37,385 nucleotides of DNA from a virus (IMGVR_UViG_2913123054_000004), one strand, 5' to 3'; counted from the first letter of the stretch, positions 1 to 26,589 are shown. Program-made: numbers and translations. Notes: generated by a model not told the origin, from the sequence alone.

Positions 1-1017
1 TCACACTTCTAGCGTTGCGAGGGGGTTGAATTTCAGAGCCGTCTCAAGATGATCGGGTGCTAAATGGGCATAGCGCATAGTCATTTTTATATCGTGATGT
101 CCGAGGATTTTTTGCAAAGCAAGGATATTTCCACCCGACATCATGAAATGCGCCGCAAACGTATGGCGCAGAACGTGTGTCAGTTGACCGCGAGGGAGCA
201 CGATAGACGTTTTTTCCATCACGGATAAAAATTGAAAATAGCAGTCTGTGAAGAAATTGAACCCATCAAGCGCCATGATCTCTTCGTAAAGCTCTTTACT
301 GATAGGGATGCTTCTGTTTTTCTTCCCCTTTGTTCTTACAAAGGTAATTCGGTATTTGGTCACCTGTGAGCGGGTAAGATTTACGGCTTCACGCCAGCGT
401 GCGCCTGTGCTTAAGCATATCTTAACTACCAGTGCCAGAATTGGGTCCTGACGTTTGCAATCAGCCAGCAATTCAACAATCTGCTCATGGGTAAGCCATG
501 CCATCTCTTTTTCTGCGATGGTGAATTTTCGCATGTTCTCCAGTGGGTTCGGATACGACCATTCGCCCAGGCGGGATAGTTCGCTAAAAACACTACTTAG
601 ATAGCTTTGCTCCAGGTTAATGGTGACCGGGCTTGCTCCTTTCTTCCATTTCTCGCTGAAGTAGATCTCACCTGTCAGGCGTTTATCTCGATAGTGGGCA
701 AACATTTTAGAGGTGAGATCAGTTGCAAGGGGATTGCCCAGAGCGTCAACCATCAGCAGCAATTTGTCATAGACATGCTGCCCAGCAGTCAGAGATTTAC
801 CATGTAGTTTGAACCATAGCTCAACCACGTCTTTCAGCGTTCGACGATCCATTGATTCACCCAGCCAGGGCTTTACTTCGGTTTCTTCCATCGTGTGACG
901 CTCAAAAGCCAGAGCTTCGCCTTTGGTGGAGAATTGTTTACGCACACGACGTCCACTACGTCCGGCGGGGTAACATTCGCAAAGCCATTTTCCTGTGGTG
1001 AGTTTTCGTACTGCCAT
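1..1017 (-). CDS. int: Tyrosine integrase, P2/186 type
   Basis: 338-aa ORF with tyrosine-recombinase C-terminal motifs (LSTGARWREA, HVLRHTFAAHFMMSGG, MTMRYAHL). Stop codon sits at positions 1-3; the terminal gene position is as in P2. Confidence 0.9.
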   Translation of the reverse strand: MAVRKLTTGKWLCECYPAGRSGRRVRKQFSTKGEALAFERHTMEETEVKPWLGESMDRRTLKDVVELWFKLHGKSLTAGQHVYDKLLLMVDALGNPLATDLTSKMFAHYRDKRLTGEIYFSEKWKKGASPVTINLEQSYLSSVFSELSRLGEWSYPNPLENMRKFTIAEKEMAWLTHEQIVELLADCKRQDPILALVVKICLSTGARWREAVNLTRSQVTKYRITFVRTKGKKNRSIPISKELYEEIMALDGFNFFTDCYFQFLSVMEKTSIVLPRGQLTHVLRHTFAAHFMMSGGNILALQKILGHHDIKMTMRYAHLAPDHLETALKFNPLATLEV

Positions 1018-1098
1018 AAAAAATGCCCTCCAGTGGAGAGCATTCTTACTGTATATATAACCAGTGTCAATGTATTAGATACATGTTGTCATACATCA

Positions 1099-2076
1099 TC
1101 ACTTTTTGGTAATGATGTCATCATTTGCTGCTGATTTTTTATCTACAAGTGAGCCTAAAATGTTAAATAAATTTGGAGGTGGCTGCGTTTTATCTGCGAA
1201 TGCAGAATTAGCTGACATATTCCAATCTTTAAACACATCAATAGCATCTTGTTTTGTTGCAGTTGAACCATAAATTTGTAAGAAGACCTCACCAAACATT
1301 AGAGCATGTTGTCTGTCTTTTCTTATGATTGCTTCATGTGTGTATTTTTTTGAATTGTTTAAACAAAAATAAGAAAGCCAAGAAAGTAATGCAACCCCAA
1401 GTAAGCCTCGAGTGAAATAATAAAAAAGTTCAATGGGGGTAGTATCTTTTATATCGATTTTATAAAAAAATGTTAAAAAGGCGGCGCTTATAGATAATAA
1501 TGAAAATAGTATTCCGGCTATCGCCCAATTGTAAGACATTGTAGTGAAGTCTTTATCGTCCTGCTGTAGTTTTGCTTTGACGCCTTGCACATATTCAGGA
1601 ACCTTTTCGTCAATTTTCTTTTGTTGAATTTTGCTTGAAAGTTCTTGGTTTTTAAACTGTAGTTCTTTGTTTTTGATGTGTTGGACTTTTAGCTGTGATA
1701 CTAGTTTTTCTTTACTTTCTATTTCATTTGACAATTCCATTTTCAACTTTTCCATTTGCTCTGAATGAGCGTTATGGTTTTTTTGAAACTCGCGTAGTTT
1801 ATGTTCTAATTCCTCAATTTTTAAAAGGTACTTATCTGCTTCACTGTTTTGCAATGATGTATGGTCAGACATGAAGGGGGCATACTTATATTCTTTTTTA
1901 GAAAAATTTCGACTGTAAGCATCAAATAGCATATCGAATTCATCAAACGCTAGAGAATCCAATAGGTTTTTCAAAGTATTATAGGTGTCATTGGTTAAAT
2001 GTGATTTTAATTCTCCTAATTTAATACTTCTAGACGTGTATTTTTCACTATTGCTTTTATAATCAGAACCACTCAT
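1099..2076 (-). CDS. Hypothetical protein: N-terminal coiled-coil region, two predicted transmembrane helices, C-terminal domain; AT-rich moron
   Basis: 325-aa ORF, markedly AT-rich and K/E/N-rich. Hydrophobic segments IAGILFSLLSISAAFLTFF and LLGVALLSWLSYF. Inserted between int and cI where P2 and 186 have no gene of this size. Confidence 0.6.
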   Translation of the reverse strand: MSGSDYKSNSEKYTSRSIKLGELKSHLTNDTYNTLKNLLDSLAFDEFDMLFDAYSRNFSKKEYKYAPFMSDHTSLQNSEADKYLLKIEELEHKLREFQKNHNAHSEQMEKLKMELSNEIESKEKLVSQLKVQHIKNKELQFKNQELSSKIQQKKIDEKVPEYVQGVKAKLQQDDKDFTTMSYNWAIAGILFSLLSISAAFLTFFYKIDIKDTTPIELFYYFTRGLLGVALLSWLSYFCLNNSKKYTHEAIIRKDRQHALMFGEVFLQIYGSTATKQDAIDVFKDWNMSANSAFADKTQPPPNLFNILGSLVDKKSAANDDIITKK

Positions 2077-2088
2077 TCCAATATCCTT

Positions 2089-3033
2089 TTATAATTCTTC
2101 TATCAGAATAAATTTGCATTTTGCAATAACATCAATATCTGAAATTTTACATTCAAATGATAAATCATTGTCTGAAATTTTTAATCTTCCTACAGGTATT
2201 CTAGTTAGGGTTCGAATGCTCACTTTTCCTTCTATTTTAACAATCCATTTACCATCTGTAATTTCATCGAATGATTGATTACATAGGTATGTTTTTTTTT
2301 CGGTGCTAACAATCAATGGTAATTGGATTGAGTCTGGTAGTAACGCTTTATCAAGCATATAGAAATTTGAATCAAATAGATTCCCGTCAGTAATTTTTTT
2401 GTGAGTAATAGCAATTACATCATTTCTTGCATCGTCAAACTTTGGGCCTTTACCAGTAGTTAGCCACATTAGTGAAGTACCCGTTTCGAGAGCGCACTTA
2501 ATTATCCAGTCTGAAGGAAAAACATCACGCATATATCTTGTGGCTAATGTGCTTTTTGAAATACCTAAGTGATCAGCTAAGGCTTGGCGAGTCTTATAAC
2601 CGTAAGCCCTAACAATTCGCTCTATTGCTTCCTTGCCACCCCGAGAATAATCAATGATGTTTTCATTGTCGAACTTTGGTTGTTTATAGTGAACGTCATG
2701 ATAAGAACCATCTTCGGAGTGTGTTTCAACATGCTGTTCTGGTGAAGGAGATGGCATTTGTTCGTCATCATCTGAACCAAATGCTAGCCATTTAATTGAT
2801 GCTCCTGTTTCCATTGAACAGATAACAATCCAATCTGCAGGAAATGTATCGCGGGCATATCTGTTAGCCATCGTGCTTTGGGAAATACCTAGATGGTTAC
2901 AGAATGCTTGGCGTGACTTGAAGCCATAAGCCATGAGTATCCGCTCGATTACTTTCTGACCACCACGATTTTGTATGACAACGGCTTTCATATCGTCATC
3001 AATATGGCGAAATGTGAATTTTTGAGTTGACAT
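2089..3033 (-). CDS. cI: 186 CI-type immunity repressor carrying two tandem copies of the N-terminal HTH domain
   Basis: 314 aa. Residues ~20-85 and ~125-195 are paralogous (IERILMAYGFKSRQAFCNHLGISQSTMANRY...CSMETGASIKWLAFG versus IERIVRAYGYKTRQALADHLGISKSTLATRY...CALETGTSLMWLTTG), separated by an acidic/Pro linker. C-terminal part resembles the 186 CI oligomerisation domain (WIVKIEGKVSIRTLTRIP...FEC). Confidence 0.8.
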   Translation of the reverse strand: MSTQKFTFRHIDDDMKAVVIQNRGGQKVIERILMAYGFKSRQAFCNHLGISQSTMANRYARDTFPADWIVICSMETGASIKWLAFGSDDDEQMPSPSPEQHVETHSEDGSYHDVHYKQPKFDNENIIDYSRGGKEAIERIVRAYGYKTRQALADHLGISKSTLATRYMRDVFPSDWIIKCALETGTSLMWLTTGKGPKFDDARNDVIAITHKKITDGNLFDSNFYMLDKALLPDSIQLPLIVSTEKKTYLCNQSFDEITDGKWIVKIEGKVSIRTLTRIPVGRLKISDNDLSFECKISDIDVIAKCKFILIEEL

Positions 3034-8534: not shown

Positions 8535-8554
8535 TACTGTATATAAAACCAGTG
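8535..8554. promoter_or_regulatory. LexA (SOS) box-like operator, TACTGTATATAAAACCAGTG, upstream of the DinI-family module
   Basis: CTGT-N8-CCAG with AT-rich spacer, one mismatch to CTGT-N8-ACAG. A perfect inverted half TATACAGTA follows at 8561-8569. Confidence 0.4.
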
Positions 8555-8596
8555 GTTAAGTATACAGTATTGTCTACCCACAGTGAGATAGGAGGG

Positions 8597-8788
8597 AAGA
8601 TGCAGGATTATTTTTTAGAGTCGTTGAAACTCCAGCGAATTGATTTTTTTCTTAAGCTTGTAGTGGCCAGTGAATGTAGTGATCAGGAAAAAGAGCTTGC
8701 GCTGCTTTGGATTTCAGAACTGACGGATGAACTCATGGCAAAAATCAGAACCCACGAATATAACCGCTCAATGGATGTTGTTAACTGA
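8597..8788 (+). CDS. Hypothetical small protein, first gene of the putative SOS-controlled module (possible Tum N-terminal-like part)
   Basis: 63-aa ORF from ATG 8597 (MQDYFLESLKLQ...); track alternative start at 8552. AT-rich. Immediately upstream of the DinI-like ORF. Confidence 0.4.
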   Translation, partial: KMQDYFLESLKLQRIDFFLKLVVASECSDQEKELALLWISELTDELMAKIRTHEYNRSMDVVN

Positions 8789-8798
8789 GGGGCAATTT

Positions 8799-9032
8799 AT
8801 GCGCATTGAAATAATGATCGATAAAGAGCAAAAAATTAGCCAGTCTACCCTGGACGCCCTTGAATCCGAGCTTTACCGCAATCTGCGCCCCCTGTATCCC
8901 AAAACGGTAATTCGCATCCGCAAAGGTAGCTCTAACGGTGTGGAACTGACCGGACTGAAACTGGACGAAGAAAAAAAACAAGTGATGAAAATTATGCAGA
9001 AGGTGTGGGAAGACGACAGCTGGCTGCATTAA
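8799..9032 (+). CDS. DinI-family protein (DNA-damage-inducible protein I-like; Tum C-terminal-like)
   Basis: 77 aa, MRIEIMIDKEQKISQSTLDALESELYRNL...MQKVWEDDSWLH, aligns with E. coli DinI (MRIEVTIAK...ETWESADDWF). RBS GAGGGG upstream. Confidence 0.75.
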   Translation: MRIEIMIDKEQKISQSTLDALESELYRNLRPLYPKTVIRIRKGSSNGVELTGLKLDEEKKQVMKIMQKVWEDDSWLH

Positions 9033-9161: not shown

Positions 9162-9497
9162 TTAAGAACGGTCATTCTGTTTAGTTTTCATGAGTGAATC
9201 CCGAATCTTCGCAAGGTTTGAATTTTCGGGGACTGAATCCATGTACGGATCGCGCTCAAACACTAATTGCTCAGATTCAACGAAAGCCCGCCACTCTACT
9301 GGGTCTAGCTCAAACTCCATCGCAGACATATCACTTTCATCTTCCCCCTCGATCCAGTGGACTAAATAAAACAATTCATCATCAGGAGAGTCATCATCGT
9401 CATCAACAATATCAATGTCGGTTACAGTGATGCGTAGGGTGGGATCGATTTTTGAGACATAAATCCCTAACTGTGGCATAGCGGGAATATTGTTCAT
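9162..9497 (-). CDS. Hypothetical highly acidic protein
   Basis: 111-aa ORF with RBS AAAGGA; strongly D/E-rich (DIDIVDDDDDSPDDE, EGEDESD). Confidence 0.55.
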   Translation of the reverse strand: MNNIPAMPQLGIYVSKIDPTLRITVTDIDIVDDDDDSPDDELFYLVHWIEGEDESDMSAMEFELDPVEWRAFVESEQLVFERDPYMDSVPENSNLAKIRDSLMKTKQNDRS

Positions 9498-9876: not shown

Positions 9877-9895
9877 GGCGTGGCGGGGATACGAG
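9877..9895. other. cos-like site (cohesive-end sequence of P2/186 type)
   Basis: GGCGTGGCGGGGA matches the first 13 nt of the 19-nt cohesive ends as I remember them (P2 GGCGAGGCGGGGAAAGCAC, 186 very similar). Lies in the 550-bp non-coding gap between gene A side and gene Q side. Confidence 0.45.
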
Positions 9896-9937
9896 CGCGC
9901 GTTAAGTCATATAAGAGTTATATATTGATTTGATTGC

Positions 9938-9966
9938 TGGACATACATACAGTGTCGCTCTATCAT
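9938..9966 (+). promoter_or_regulatory. Candidate sigma70 promoter for the kinase/HIRAN operon (TGGACA-N17-TATCAT)
   Basis: Hexamers with 17-bp spacing, ~80 bp upstream of the 10048 start codon. Confidence 0.3.
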
Positions 9967-10047
9967 CTAATAAATCTTAGGGTATTTGACAATGTTTGGA
10001 TAAAATGGAACCTAACTTATTCATAATCCGCTAAACAGGGATGTCAG

Positions 10048-10962
10048 ATGCCATACCAATTGGTAGAGCTTAGCCCCGTAGCTAACGATCTTGAACAGTT
10101 AGGAACCAAAGAGAAGTTTTGGTTCTATTTCTCCGATGACACTGTAAATTTGCAGTTGTTTAAGTACTCTAGGCCAGGTACTGGCGAGCATTGGTCTGAA
10201 AAGTGTGCTGCTGAGTTATGTCATTTGCTTAACATTCCACATGCTAGCTATGATTTGGCGCGATACAATGGTCGATTCGGTGTGGTGACTCAGAATATCA
10301 TTCCATCTGGTTTCCGGATGGTAATGGGAAATGAAGTGCTTCACAGTTCGACATTCGATTATCCTGGGCCTTTACAAGCCGGGGAAAAGCCGGTAAGGGT
10401 CAGAGAACACACTGTCACAAGGGTCTTGGGTTGTTTAGATAGGGAATCTATCAAGCCTCCTCCGAGTGTATATGATCTAACCGGGCTAAATGCAGCAGAT
10501 GTATTTTGTGGATATTTGATGCTCGATGCACTTGTGAGTAATCAAGATCGCCACCATGAAAATTGGGCAATCATGCTTAACAATGAAACTGGTGAGCAGT
10601 TTTTGTGTCCAACATACGATCATGCCGCTAGTTTAGGAAGGGAGATGTTAGATGATGAGCGTAACGAACGGCTTAATACTAAAGATAAAAATCGACAAAT
10701 CCCATGTTTTGTAAGAAAAGCTCGCTCTGAGCTATTCAAAGCAAAAACTGATAAAAAGCCCTTGCTGACTGTTGAAGCATTTCAACATGCAGTTGAAGGG
10801 AGAGTTGCCGCTCGCGACCATTGGTTAGGTAAGTTGAGCGTTTTAACAGAAGATTCCATTACAGATGTGTTTAACCAAGTGCCTTCATCGTGTATATCCG
10901 ACAGTGCACGTAGATTTGCAACGTTAATGGTAATGGAAAATCGCAGAAGGTTACTAGAATGA
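10048..10962 (+). CDS. HipA-family serine/threonine kinase, short form (core kinase domain only)
   Basis: 304 aa. P-loop-like LGTKEKFWF near the N-terminus, catalytic-loop motif DALVSNQDRHHENWAIM, metal-binding LCPTYDHAAS; same order as in HipA/HipT. RBS AGGGA upstream. Confidence 0.8.
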   Translation: MPYQLVELSPVANDLEQLGTKEKFWFYFSDDTVNLQLFKYSRPGTGEHWSEKCAAELCHLLNIPHASYDLARYNGRFGVVTQNIIPSGFRMVMGNEVLHSSTFDYPGPLQAGEKPVRVREHTVTRVLGCLDRESIKPPPSVYDLTGLNAADVFCGYLMLDALVSNQDRHHENWAIMLNNETGEQFLCPTYDHAASLGREMLDDERNERLNTKDKNRQIPCFVRKARSELFKAKTDKKPLLTVEAFQHAVEGRVAARDHWLGKLSVLTEDSITDVFNQVPSSCISDSARRFATLMVMENRRRLLE

Positions 10963-11699
10963 CTAATACAAACTCCGTTTACGTCGCATGGCAGGCACCA
11001 GATACCAGAGACTGGCATGTTGTTGGTAACTTGCAAGAGCGCAAATCGGGGTATGTTTTCAGGTATACCAAAGGTGCTCTTAAATCTTCTAAATTTACAA
11101 AGTTTAGCGGCATGAGTGATGTTCGTGAAACTTATGTATCGGAAGAATTGTTTCCTCTTTTTAAAAATCGCCTTTTATCACCGAGACGTCCAGAGTATCC
11201 GAGTTTCATTAAATGGCTTGGATTTGAAGAAGATAAGGTAAATCCTATCGATATTCTTGCTCGCTCGGGAGGCTTACGAAGCACTGATCAGCTGCAGATT
11301 TTCAAAAAAATTGATTTTGATTCTGATGGTAACTTTGAGCATTTTTTCTTCTTACATGGACTTGGTTACTTGAATAGCTTAGCTAATGCTCGTGTATCTG
11401 AATTGAAACCGGGGCAAATTTTGCGTCTTTGCTTGGATCTTCAAAATGAATACGATGGGGATGCTGTTGTCGTTCGTGCAGATAAACCAGCTGAAATCGT
11501 TGGTTACTGCCCTAGGTATTTAAGTAATGACATCAAGAAGATGTTATTGGATGATCCAAAATCAATCACTTTAACGGTCGAAAAGATTAGTGATGATGCT
11601 CCTCATAACTATCGGTTATTATGTAAATTATCAGGGGTACTAAGCCAAGCCTGTCAATCGACGCTGATTCCTCAAGATGAGTTTGAACCTATTGAGTAA
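10959..11699 (+). CDS. HipS-like (HipA N-terminal subdomain-like) protein with C-terminal HIRAN domain; putative partner/antitoxin of the kinase
   Basis: 246 aa. Start overlaps kinase stop (ATGA). N-terminal half shows HipA N-subdomain-like patterns (EELFPLFKNRLLSPRRP, PIDILARSGGLRSTD). C-terminal ~90 aa has HIRAN hallmarks (LQNEYDGDAVVV...EIVGYCPRYL). Confidence 0.75.
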   Translation: MTNTNSVYVAWQAPDTRDWHVVGNLQERKSGYVFRYTKGALKSSKFTKFSGMSDVRETYVSEELFPLFKNRLLSPRRPEYPSFIKWLGFEEDKVNPIDILARSGGLRSTDQLQIFKKIDFDSDGNFEHFFFLHGLGYLNSLANARVSELKPGQILRLCLDLQNEYDGDAVVVRADKPAEIVGYCPRYLSNDIKKMLLDDPKSITLTVEKISDDAPHNYRLLCKLSGVLSQACQSTLIPQDEFEPIE

Positions 11700-11705
11700 A
11701 TGAAG

Positions 11706-11729
11706 AAAAGCCACCAAACGGTGGCTTTT
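11706..11729. terminator. Bidirectional intrinsic terminator hairpin between the HIRAN gene and portal gene Q
   Basis: Perfect stem AAAAGCCACC / GGTGGCTTTT with 4-nt loop AAAC, T-run on the plus strand and A-run on the other side. Confidence 0.6.
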
Positions 11730-11733
11730 CTTA

Positions 11734-12771
11734 TTATGGGGCTATATCTAGCGAGTAGGTATCAAACCGTATCGCCTCCTTGCCAAGCCAATCATTCATC
11801 TCCTGTAATCGCTTTTGTAGTGGCATTAGCTCATTTCGGACGAATACACGGCTTGCCTTCTCCACATCCCCAAACCCCCCGACATTATTAGGCATAATCC
11901 CCATCATCTGAGGCGGTACGCGGTGCGCAGCCATCATGTCATCACGGCTGACGTTCTTGATGTTCAGAAATTCATCCTTCGCTGCGACTTCTGACAATGG
12001 GATAATCTGAAGTCCGTCTTTTTTACCATTAGGCGAGTACATAAACAGATTGCGGAAGTTACCCGGACCTTTGGCGCTTTTCATTGCGTTGCGGAGGTTG
12101 TTCACATCCTCCTGGTTCTGCGCAGCATCGGTCATGTACATGATGAAGCCTGCATGACTGCCGTTAATGTAATACCTGCGGCGGAACAGCGTGGCGGACT
12201 CGTTGAGCAGAGCTGACGGAATGGCAGAAAGATAACCGGGCAGGCCGTAGATCTCCTGGTTAATGTCCGGTTCCATCAGATGAAAAATGCTGCCTTTCGT
12301 GAACTGATACGGCTGGGTTGTCATACCGTATTGCACAAACCAGTAGGTATCCAGGTCTAACCCACGTCGGGTGTATTTCGCCAGGGCAGGTTCAAGGGCG
12401 ATAACTTCACCGAAGCGGTTCGTACGTTTCTCCAGGTAGGCGTTACCAAATACCAGATAGTCTTGCACAAAACGTGAAAAAGCCTGCTGGCTGAGTAGCG
12501 GGTGAGGGATGTAGGTACTGGTCAGAATGTTGCATTTCACCGCAATTGGTGAACTGTGATGCACGGCAGCGCGGAAGGTGCGCGCCAGTCCGTCAAAGCT
12601 TACTGGCGGTTCATACCAGCGATCTGTCTGTACGCATTCCACATAGTCCAGCAGTTCACGGCGGTCCAGAACAGGAACGGGATCGCCAAAGCTGAATGTT
12701 TCGGCTGAAGTCTGGCTTTTATGCTGAATCTGGGTCGTCGACGCAGTGCGGCTCTTCTTACTCTTTCCCAT
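11734..12771 (-). CDS. Q: Portal protein (P2 gpQ-like)
   Basis: 345 aa; size, position and divergent Q-P / O-N arrangement as in P2. Confidence 0.9.
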   Translation of the reverse strand: MGKSKKSRTASTTQIQHKSQTSAETFSFGDPVPVLDRRELLDYVECVQTDRWYEPPVSFDGLARTFRAAVHHSSPIAVKCNILTSTYIPHPLLSQQAFSRFVQDYLVFGNAYLEKRTNRFGEVIALEPALAKYTRRGLDLDTYWFVQYGMTTQPYQFTKGSIFHLMEPDINQEIYGLPGYLSAIPSALLNESATLFRRRYYINGSHAGFIMYMTDAAQNQEDVNNLRNAMKSAKGPGNFRNLFMYSPNGKKDGLQIIPLSEVAAKDEFLNIKNVSRDDMMAAHRVPPQMMGIMPNNVGGFGDVEKASRVFVRNELMPLQKRLQEMNDWLGKEAIRFDTYSLDIAP

Positions 12772-25551: not shown

Positions 25552-26589
25552 TTATATTTGCCTACCTCCTAATAAAATGTGTGAGGTGTATTTGTTGGTT
25601 TTCAATAACCTTGCTACAATTATGCAGGTGGTTACAATAAGGAAAACAAATGAAGGGGTTATGATGAGGTTATATATGAGTGGATTTTCGCATAGGTTAT
25701 TAATGTTCACGTATGCCTCTATTCTGTAAAAAATAAACGACGAGATTATATAGATGGGAAAGGTGTAAGTACCGACAAAGGATGTGGCTCGTATAAATAA
25801 ATTGTTTTTCGTTGATAAAAATGTATAAGCATATATAAGCGATATGCTTCCGGCGAAGCCAATGAAGTAGCGAAATATAATAATGAATGATTGATGCCAG
25901 AAATCAACATTCTCATATGTCATTTTAGATATGTAAATATAATACTCTCTATTCCATAGGAGAAGCATGCCAATCCATGTTAATACGGATAACACACCAA
26001 TTTTGTGCCTATTTCTAGAGGCAAAATCTAAAATGCGATGGGCGGATATACCAGCGATAAAATAAGGGGCCATAAATTTAATTTTGTCCATATTCCAATC
26101 ATCTCCATATGCAAGGGATATACTAAATATCAGTAAATAAAGCACCACAGAATATTGTTTGCTTATTGAGTGACAAATAGTATAAACAATAGATACTGCA
26201 AAGAGTGCAGAAAGGAACCAGAAGGCGTAGATGGCTCCATATCTAATATTTATTAAATTTATATCTCTTCCCACAAAAATGGATTCAGCAATGAACCATG
26301 CAATGGATGGGATTATTAACTGCATGAATTTTCTTTTGATAATTGATGATGGTTTTCTCTTGAGAGAAAAATAGAAAAGATAGCCGCTAAGCAGCATAAA
26401 AAATGGCATGTGGAAGCTGTAAATGGTAATAAATAATGGGTTGTCAAAAAAATTTAAACTATCTTTTTTTACAAACTGAATTGAATGGCCCCACACGACA
26501 AAAATTATAGCTAATCCTTTCATTGAGTCTATAATGGAATTTCGAGTGCTGGGTGTCTCTGTTATAATAAGATGTGGTTCGTTTTTCAT
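25552..26589 (-). CDS. Acyltransferase family 3 membrane protein (O-antigen/LPS acetylase-like), probable lysogenic conversion gene
   Basis: 345 aa, ~10 hydrophobic segments, AT-rich; family-typical motifs GLAIIFVVWGHS and HMPFFMLLSGYLF near the N-terminus. Confidence 0.8.
   Translation of the reverse strand: MKNEPHLIITETPSTRNSIIDSMKGLAIIFVVWGHSIQFVKKDSLNFFDNPLFITIYSFHMPFFMLLSGYLFYFSLKRKPSSIIKRKFMQLIIPSIAWFIAESIFVGRDINLINIRYGAIYAFWFLSALFAVSIVYTICHSISKQYSVVLYLLIFSISLAYGDDWNMDKIKFMAPYFIAGISAHRILDFASRNRHKIGVLSVLTWIGMLLLWNREYYIYISKMTYENVDFWHQSFIIIFRYFIGFAGSISLIYAYTFLSTKNNLFIRATSFVGTYTFPIYIISSFIFYRIEAYVNINNLCENPLIYNLIITPSFVFLIVTTCIIVARLLKTNKYTSHILLGGRQI

Follow-up and report, generated by a model that had tools for sequence, protein, structure and literature searches.

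The 37,385-nt stretch IMGVR_UViG_2913123054_000004 (the window, always meaning the whole stretch) contains a complete 186-type P2-like prophage, and the slot between its cos site and its portal gene holds a two-gene module encoding a putative Hip-type kinase (HipI) and a putative partner protein (HipN). By its architecture, this locus is a cassette of the hipIN type, the same as the PADLOC defence candidate PDC-M03. A predicted LexA operator lies over its promoter, which changes the model of the module from constitutive to DNA-damage-induced expression, the latter being probable. With modest confidence, we favour the reading that the locus is an SOS-induced kinase module gated by HipN, which causes growth arrest or abortive infection.

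Both proteins match the PDC-M03 profiles nearly over their whole length, the kinase to PDC-M03A (PDLC04344; E 2.1e-122, residues 2-304 of 304) and HipN to PDC-M03B (PDLC04347; E 6.8e-93, residues 1-244 of 246). Since the two match end to end and their genes adjoin, PADLOC would call the locus PDC-M03; PDC entries are candidates without an attached mechanism or phenotype. The likeness to hipIN consists in a kinase of about 300 aa that lacks N-subdomain-1 and has its Gly-rich loop near the N-terminus, followed by the gene of a HipS-like plus HIRAN protein. An earlier note on this DNA had mentioned a phylogenomic survey with HipS-HIRAN partners; this is the work of Gerdes, Baerentsen and Brodersen (mBio 2021; PMC8262856), which predicted 14 hipIN modules, none experimentally tested, with kinases of 279-321 aa, and placed the HipI subclade in main clade XI, one HipI subclade being proteobacterial. 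The same paper published, for hipIN and for HipL (single-chain proteins made of a kinase plus HipS-like and HIRAN domains), the hypothesis that sensing of DNA ends by HIRAN releases the kinase and leads to abortive infection. Since both the module and this idea were already on record, the earlier note overstated the novelty of the locus. The P2 cos-Q location and LexA or SOS control of hipIN are not mentioned in that paper.

The literature searched (Brenes & Laub 2025 lay outside it) yielded no experiment on hipIN or on any other pairing of HipA with HIRAN. Such a pair is not mentioned in Rousset 2022, Vassallo 2022, Millman 2022, Payne 2024 or two 2025 preprints, and the diDNase paper describes HipA+HIRAN clusters beside those nucleases in Actinobacteria, calling the link uninvestigated. 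In RefSeq, the kinase is named 'HipA domain-containing' or 'hypothetical' and the partner 'HIRAN domain-containing', while in PHROGs both module proteins fall into families of unknown function (phrog_8728 for the kinase).

The product of gene 1 is, judging from its modelled fold, a HipA-superfamily (PI3/4-kinase-like) Ser/Thr kinase core without the N-terminal region (~130 aa) of HipA and thus without N-subdomain-1, which agrees with the earlier proposal of a Hip kinase devoid of the long N-terminal domain. Its AlphaFold2 model is confident (pLDDT 85.6, pTM 0.87), and Foldseek retrieved as the closest solved structure CtkA (JHP0940, PDB 3akj) of Helicobacter pylori (E 2.7e-11, TM 0.69-0.75), followed by HipA (~1e-6) and Legionella HipT (3e-6 to 5e-5, TMt up to 0.65), all three with probability 1.00, and with weaker matches to CotH, HopBF1 and phosphatidylinositol 3-kinase. 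Three HipA-type motifs that had been quoted for this gene are all present in the translation: LGTKEKFWF (aa 18-26), SNQDRHHENWAIM (aa 164-176) and LCPTYDHAAS (aa 186-195). They contain the Gly-rich loop G19-T-K-E-K23, the catalytic residues D167, H169 and N172, and the Mg-binding D191; K39, the putative ATP-binding Lys, is a further key residue. As had been expected of the motifs, D167, N172 and D191 align with the catalytic residues D309, N314 and D332 of HipA, and they align with CtkA as well, so that the predicted catalytic residues are all intact. The likeness of the G-x-x-E-K loop, found at residues 16-23 here and at 150-157 in HipA, was established by inspection only.

Sequence methods reach less far. 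A profile check proposed earlier gave a divided result, the Pfam HIRAN model scoring above its cut-off on HipN (51.3 bits against 24.7) and the Hip models below theirs: HipA_C (PF07804) obtained 20.7 bits on the kinase against a cut-off of 30.5 (E 3.6e-4, aa 154-225 only), and Couple_hipA 16.3 bits on HipN against 22.5 (E 0.014, aa 20-72). A precomputed PF07804 match is present in many close homologues of the kinase, and the cut-off of that model marks a limit of detection and does not define the superfamily. A search of PDB sequences with the single kinase sequence gave only a marginal match to CtkA, and a profile of 34 kinase sequences reached only CtkA (E 8e-4). The single HipN sequence gave nothing meaningful in PDB sequences and its profile a marginal match to lp_0118 (E 0.43); neither family profile reached HipA, HipT or HipS there. 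When hhalign and hmmsearch were applied to HipA of K-12, only HipA 295-335 (~40 residues) aligned, with weak statistics. The Hip identities of both proteins thus hold because of the fold searches, sequence methods alone being insufficient.

Across kinases of 22-71% identity, a set that includes the copies from a Vibrio element and a Clostridioides difficile phage, G19, K23, W25, F38, K39, E47, E51, N165, D167, R168, H169, N172, D191 and S195 are invariant. The position of the regulatory phosphosite, S150 in HipA and S57 in HipT, is occupied by E16 according to a hand alignment of the motifs (nt 10093-10116); E16 is invariant in the gammaproteobacterial clade, and the loop has an invariant T20 instead. 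With an acidic residue apparently built into the phosphosite, self-regulation of this kinase could differ from that of its relatives.

HipN is, according to its model (pLDDT 89.1, pTM 0.84), a two-domain protein with the domains rigidly arranged, and Foldseek matched the N-terminal half to HipS and the C-terminal half to HIRAN, the composition that the earlier note had given it. The invariant residues fall into three groups: F65, F68, R71 and L72 of the HipS/HipA-N signature, S103, G104 and D110 of a second motif in the N-terminal domain, and N163, D166, A169, G182, Y183 and P185 of the HIRAN motifs. The N-x-Y-D-x-x-A and G-Y motifs of HIRAN are conserved, and the former stretch aligns with lp_0118. 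Solved HIRAN domains, those of HLTF/Rad5 and lp_0118 (4s0n, 4xzg, 6l8o, 3k2y), differ in their company, since HIRAN there occurs with a SWI/SNF helicase and in HipN with a putative kinase-regulating domain. The position of the stacking Phe of HLTF appears to be A-P in the HIRAN domain of HipN, as was noted for bacterial HIRANs by Gerdes et al. (PMC8262856).

The two genes are arranged as had been described, with open reading frames (ORFs) of exactly the lengths given and an ATGA at 10959-10962 whose bases are common to the kinase stop and the hipN start (Table 1). The position between cos and portal also proved right. The cos site was placed by alignment to cos of P2 (cosL/cosR) and of Klebsiella and Escherichia P2-like phages; a search of the window for the exact P2 cos 19-mer with up to 3 mismatches gave no match, because cos here is a variant sequence. 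In alignments, homology to related phages stops at about 9901 and restarts at the portal stop, leaving a cargo slot of ~1.8 kb (~9902-11733), the equivalent of which measures 167 bp in P2. The module is poorer in GC (38-44%) than the phage backbone and the genes that flank it (51-62%). The terminator had rightly been called strong: it is a 13-bp hairpin of -21 kcal/mol (z = -5.6; 0 of 200 shuffles fold equally well) that abuts the portal stop codon at 11734, and it was revealed by folding, as the consensus terminator scan missed it on account of its tail rule. It is part of the variable cargo, each related phage having its own different hairpin there, and the P2 annotation has tQ at the equivalent position.

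Table 1. Features of the module, of the slot that contains it and of other LexA-type sites in the window
Feature	Position	Strand	Remarks
Kinase gene (hipI-type)	10048-10962	+	304 aa
Partner gene (hipN-type)	10959-11699	+	246 aa; start overlaps kinase stop
HipS-like domain (predicted)	10959-11309	+	aa ~1-117 of HipN; fold match
HIRAN domain (predicted)	11337-11642	+	aa 127-228 of HipN; Pfam HIRAN and fold match
LexA (SOS) operator (predicted) TGCTGGACATACATACAGTG	9935-9954		overlaps -35 hexamer
Sigma-70 promoter (candidate)	9938-9966	+	-35 TGGACA 9938-9943, 17-nt spacer, -10 TATCAT 9961-9966
Shine-Dalgarno-like AGGGA	10037-10041	+	6 nt 5' of kinase ATG; read from sequence
Bidirectional intrinsic terminator hairpin AAAAGCCACC-AAAC-GGTGGCTTTT	11703-11732		between convergent hipN and portal genes
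Equivalent of cos cohesive-end 19-mer GGCGTGGCGGGGATACGAG	9877-9895		left edge of cargo slot
Portal gene Q (P2 family)	11734-12771	-	right slot edge, outside module; Pfam Phage_portal, RefSeq annotation in relative L001
Near-consensus LexA box TACTGTATATAAAACCAGTG	8535-8554		23.1 bits; weaker overlapping site 8550-8569
Best LexA-type site of the window TACTGTATATATAACCAGTG	1047-1066		24.8 bits

Upstream of the kinase gene, TGGACA-17-TATCAT is the only good sigma-70 match (10 of 12 consensus positions). The earlier note had seen a candidate promoter here and the site was found again, but the predicted LexA operator over its -35 had been overlooked. The promoter is credible because its -10 is conserved across loci and not because of the consensus scan; promoter-like matches in the region are not enriched (2 found, 6.2 expected from shuffles). 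When ~170 nt 5' of the kinase ATG were aligned across diverged copies, the only conserved upstream element was the palindrome CTG(T/G)-N8-ACAG, the first arm of which is CTGG here and not the CTGT of the LexA consensus (CTGT-N8-ACAG, or TACTG(TA)5CAGTA). In 50 of 65 loci, a LexA-type box precedes the kinase ATG by 87-118 nt, and every Enterobacterales-type copy of at least 66% identity that has upstream sequence possesses it; the surveyed loci are related, so that this and the other locus counts do not represent independent events, a limit eased by 23 distinct 20-mers among the operators and 31 distinct upstream sequences. Over those 31 sequences, the columns of the box that were not forced by the search pattern hold 1.6-2.0 bits against 0.3-0.55 in the flanks. 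A TA...T at +26, +27 and +31 from the box corresponds to the predicted -10, which places the -35 inside the box.

Scored with a weight matrix from an uncurated set of 17 E. coli operators, which can serve as a lead but not as a reference, the site at 9935 obtains 20.0 bits, within the 13-27 bits of those operators, and ranks third among 74,732 20-mers of the window. The window sites in the operator range are those at 1047 (24.8 bits), 8535 (23.1 bits) and 9935; a site of 14.9 bits abuts the 8535 box, and the next-best score is 9.1. The bare pattern CTGT-N8-ACAG is not enriched in the window (15 found, 12.3 expected), and the LexA claim is based on the matrix score together with cross-locus conservation, not on the pattern count. 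With LexA arms of just 4 bp, the promoter region gave no hit in an inverted-repeat finder. In phages whose slot holds other cargo, the box stands only before the DinI unit and not before the cargo, whereas module copies outside P2-like phages, and those in non-phage islands, do carry it; the predicted operator belongs to the Enterobacterales clade of the module and not to the slot. Its retention in non-coding DNA, while synonymous sites of the module are saturated, argues for function.

Two weaker observations concern the same leader. The predicted 5' untranslated region (9973-10065) folds with -23.2 kcal/mol (z -2.1; equalled by 11 of 200 shuffles), pairing 9981-9991 with 10042-10052 and so covering the kinase start codon, but the signal is marginal and was not used. 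A stretch TTTGGATAAAATGG (9995-10008) is kept among module copies in the P2 context and not in other copies.

In the favoured model, LexA would hold the operon off or low in an undamaged lysogen. DNA damage, or single-stranded DNA generated by a phage, would activate RecA and cause LexA cleavage, after which both proteins would be made in a fixed ratio through translational coupling. The HipS-like domain would dock where N-subdomain-1 sits in HipA, or HipS on HipT, and keep the Gly-rich loop inactive; HipS is known to neutralise HipT by contacting this loop (eLife 2023, PMC10627512). Binding of HIRAN to free DNA 3' ends or single-stranded DNA would then lift the inhibition, as hypothesised by Gerdes et al. 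(PMC8262856). The active kinase may phosphorylate an essential protein of the host, possibly an aminoacyl-tRNA synthetase or another translation factor if the targets of HipA (GltX) and HipT (TrpS) are a guide, and the stop of growth would either abort a superinfecting phage or amount to damage-induced dormancy. The SOS layer is the addition of this analysis to the published hypothesis on the sensing of DNA ends.

Several points weigh against this model. Sequence similarity to HipA is restricted to the catalytic loop, HipA_C and Couple_hipA remain under the Pfam cut-offs, and NCBIfam has no usable match for either protein. The closest solved kinase is CtkA and not a Hip toxin, which leaves room for a target other than a tRNA synthetase; CtkA has been described as a secreted pro-inflammatory kinase, and we know of no HIRAN partner for it. 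On the regulatory side, the operator was scored with a matrix of uncurated sites, and the box is absent upstream of Vibrio, Pseudomonas and more distant copies of the module, including L016 and L017 described below, so that SOS control is clade-specific. LexA cleavage takes minutes, which is slow compared with fast lytic phages, and SOS also induces the 186-type prophage, so the module could serve the phage and not the host. Finally, the wedge residue Trp65 of HipS is apparently not conserved in HipN, where a hand alignment has R76/R77, and the inhibitory mechanism may therefore differ from that of HipS; the HipS-like domain could even be activating, as HipA is active with the equivalent domain fused.

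The last point leads to a different view of the partner, which we regard as doubtful: HipN may be an activating or targeting subunit whose HipS-like domain would complete the kinase, as N-subdomain-1 does in active HipA, and whose HIRAN domain would recruit the holoenzyme to DNA 3' ends, with DNA-associated substrates, for example replication, recombination or single-stranded DNA-binding proteins of the phage or the host. Besides the missing wedge, this would fit the activity of HipA with the homologous domain in cis (PMC10627512), the existence of HipL single chains, in which the HipS-like domain need not dissociate (PMC8262856), the kinase-first gene order with tight coupling, which suggests an obligate 1:1 complex, and the rigid interdomain arrangement in the HipN model. 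However, HipS is inhibitory in both solved HipS-HipT systems.

An extended form of the favoured model, in our judgement improbable, is a two-key DNA-damage checkpoint kinase carried by mobile elements, in which RecA/LexA, a signal of single-stranded DNA, would unlock transcription and only HIRAN on free DNA 3' ends would then activate the enzyme. If true, this would be a growth arrest activated by DNA ends through a PI3/4-kinase fold, with a logic like that of the eukaryotic phosphatidylinositol 3-kinase-related kinases (ATM, DNA-PK), and temperate phages would be using it to abort superinfection or to time their own SOS induction. If HipN gates the kinase via HIRAN, a bacterial HIRAN domain would for the first time have a functional role assigned to it, and a new coupling of sensor to effector would join the defence and toxin-antitoxin mechanisms.

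The two genes behave as a unit. In the IMG/VR viral loci that were found with the HipN alignment, the kinase lies directly 5' of hipN in all 53 and the pair is intact, and the genes overlap by 4, 8, 11 or 14 nt in all 49 closer copies. A P2-type portal adjoins the module in 35 of these 53 loci, at portal identities down to 62%, while the remaining ones adjoin DNA methylases, an integrase or another portal type. Each module protein has hundreds of homologues; at 50% identity, the relatives of HipN fall into 1,631 clusters with E <= 1e-3, of which 314 reach E <= 1e-30. Among the 150 best HipN representatives, almost every one is a free-standing protein with two domains and 235-270 aa, and no kinase-HipN (HipL-like) fusion is among these 150. 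Hits of greater length proved to be HIRAN proteins extended by unrelated sequence, or else a secretin chimera; the latter (P0267, 419 aa), in which secretin domains precede the HipN linker and HIRAN region, is most likely a chimera of gene calling or assembly and not a real architecture.

Both genes have a dN/dS ratio (nonsynonymous to synonymous substitution rates) of about 0.05, the dN of one follows that of the other, and synonymous sites are saturated between copies; both genes are under strong purifying selection. That the locus is a decaying or non-functional remnant, a view to which the sub-threshold scores of Pfam HipA_C and Couple_hipA might lend something, is hardly credible: the dN/dS and the intact motifs rule it out, and the intact ORFs, invariant catalytic residues, confident models and conserved promoter and terminator speak against it as well.

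The pair occurs far beyond P2-like phages. It was found in 14-kb non-tailed temperate elements of Vibrio (Vinavirales), beside the integrase (L016, PQ189286, 2935-4649; 37% identity), in the C. difficile phage phiCDKH02 between the ImmA/XRE lysogeny module and the integrase (L017, PP767789, 2947-4536; 27% identity), between housekeeping genes of V. cholerae and in a Pseudomonas element with an integrase. In four E. coli loci (L003-L006, 6001-7663), a 71%-identical module with a LexA box lies in a non-P2 island, where it adjoins a contact-dependent inhibition/two-partner-secretion locus and, in L004, a gene of an archaeo-eukaryotic-type primase; this island may be a satellite or an integrative element. 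The cassette moves among unrelated temperate elements and is an autonomous unit.

In the window, the module sits in the gpA-gpQ region next to cos, which is known as a diversity hotspot of P2-like prophages (Rousset 2022; Vassallo 2022), and shows the same pattern of variable cargo beside cos with conserved flanks. The flanks of the slot recur in 60 phage records without the cargo being covered in any, and the alternative cargo there includes an AIPR/AbiU-like protein and a Hypoth_Ymh protein that also matches PD-Lambda-3_B and HEPN models. The cos segment is present in 1,269 of 5,426 complete E. coli genomes and the module in 21. The earlier note had equated the site with the accessory hotspot in which P2 carries old and tin; the hotspot is indeed the same, but in P2 these two genes are found to the side of cos that faces gpA, and the module is on the portal side. 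The old and tin proteins are unrelated to those of the module, which has its own promoter and terminator. The portal-side sub-slot, the conserved LexA operator and the spread over three unrelated temperate-phage lineages appear to be new.

This distribution also bears on an explanation that we consider unlikely though worth keeping in mind, namely that the locus serves dormancy or addiction upon SOS induction and has no role dedicated to phage defence. In that case the kinase would be a growth-arrest toxin induced by damage, like the LexA-controlled toxins TisB, SymE and YafO or as in persistence mediated by HipA, and would help the lysogen to survive DNA damage or stabilise the carrier element. 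Wherever the module occurs in Enterobacterales, non-phage islands included, the predicted operator comes with it, some copies reside at ordinary chromosomal sites such as that between the V. cholerae housekeeping genes, and HIRAN and SOS answer to damaged DNA generally, not to phage specifically. In addition, Hip kinases are classical persistence toxins (PMC8262856). On the other hand, the module is strongly enriched in temperate-phage slots that otherwise hold abortive-infection or HEPN defence genes, with 35 of 53 viral loci in the P2 cos-Q hotspot, and the pair is a PADLOC defence candidate. Dormancy and defence are not mutually exclusive roles.

The surroundings of the module in this prophage raise another option. 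The gene order is integrase, 186-family CI repressor, Dam methylase, gpA, DinI-like unit, cos, module, Q and P, after which come more phage genes, in the annotated relative L001 those of capsid and tail, and then the host gene ybjL. The LexA box at 8535 lies just 5' of a 62-aa ORF at 8600-8788 (phrog_698, of unknown function) and the DinI-like gene at 8727-9032, presumably where phage 186 has its SOS-controlled operon, and the same box recurs in the related phages L012 and L013 and in L001. The site at 1047 is located 30 nt 5' of the integrase start (int 1-1017, minus strand), just past the stop of a 325-aa ORF, and L001 has an equivalent box before its own integrase. With a 186-family CI and two other LexA-type operators, one of them before the DinI-like unit, the cassette might be co-induced with the lytic switch, and the kinase might modify host or competitor factors in favour of the phage's own burst, competitors being, for instance, superinfecting phages or satellites of the P4 type, which use the same cos. 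The module lies only 40 nt from cos, the one region that P2-like phages share with P4 satellites (PMC9122126). Such a phage-benefit function at prophage induction is nevertheless quite unlikely, as the LexA-boxed module also occurs outside P2-like phages and outside phages altogether, and a translation-arresting kinase would harm the inducing phage too.

Returning to the gated, SOS-induced kinase, the module can be set apart from the Hip systems already characterised. HipBST (E. coli O127:H6; Legionella pneumophila) has a HipB/HTH (helix-turn-helix) gene, which the module lacks; the gene order of the module is reversed, with the kinase first, and its partner carries HIRAN. The autophosphorylation serines S57/S59 of HipT correspond to E16/L18 in the motif alignment, T20 being the residue in the loop, and HipBST is autoregulated whereas the module is under predicted LexA control. 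HipBA of E. coli K-12 shares the kinase fold, the equivalents of D309/N314/D332 and the G-x-x-E-K loop, over a similarity of ~40 residues, but the module kinase has neither the fused N-terminal domains nor HipB. CtkA is of similar size and likewise has no HipA-type N-terminal domain, at only 15% identity. DS-6/HipAD, a validated two-gene defence system that needs the catalytic residue of its HipA-related kinase (DeWeirdt et al. 2026, PMC13092281), demonstrates that a kinase of the Hip type can act as a defence effector. In its partner, DUF3037 and DUF1829 domains take the place of the HipS-like and HIRAN domains, and this sets the two systems apart.

The hipIN/PDC-M03 class is widespread, and the present copy, an E. 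coli-type module native to a P2/186-like prophage, makes the hypothesis of a DNA-end-sensing Hip kinase directly testable in E. coli and its phages. Because of the predicted LexA operator, assays that rely on the native promoter may give no signal in cells without stress, and a negative screen would then be uninformative.

Some other genes of the prophage deserve mention. The 325-aa ORF (1099-2076, minus strand) lies between the integrase and CI, where L001 has only a 63-aa gene of the YdcA family; it has no Pfam or PADLOC family and matches only phrog_2628 (unknown function), and it may mark a third site of accessory cargo. In the gpA-side slot, where P2 has old and tin, there is a very acidic 111-aa ORF with a DDDDD run (9162-9497, minus strand; phrog_17127, unknown function, no Pfam or PADLOC match); related phages have different genes or none there, L001 being annotated with a 176-aa hypothetical protein. 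The CI-repressor ORF (2089-3033, minus strand) encodes 314 aa, against 189 aa in L001, with two Phage_CI_repr stretches and Phage_CI_C, which could reflect a duplicated HTH or an over-extended ORF call. An acyltransferase gene (Acyl_transf_3; 25552-26589, minus strand), on the strand opposite to the surrounding ORFs, looks like a lysogenic-conversion gene of the type that acylates surface polysaccharides.

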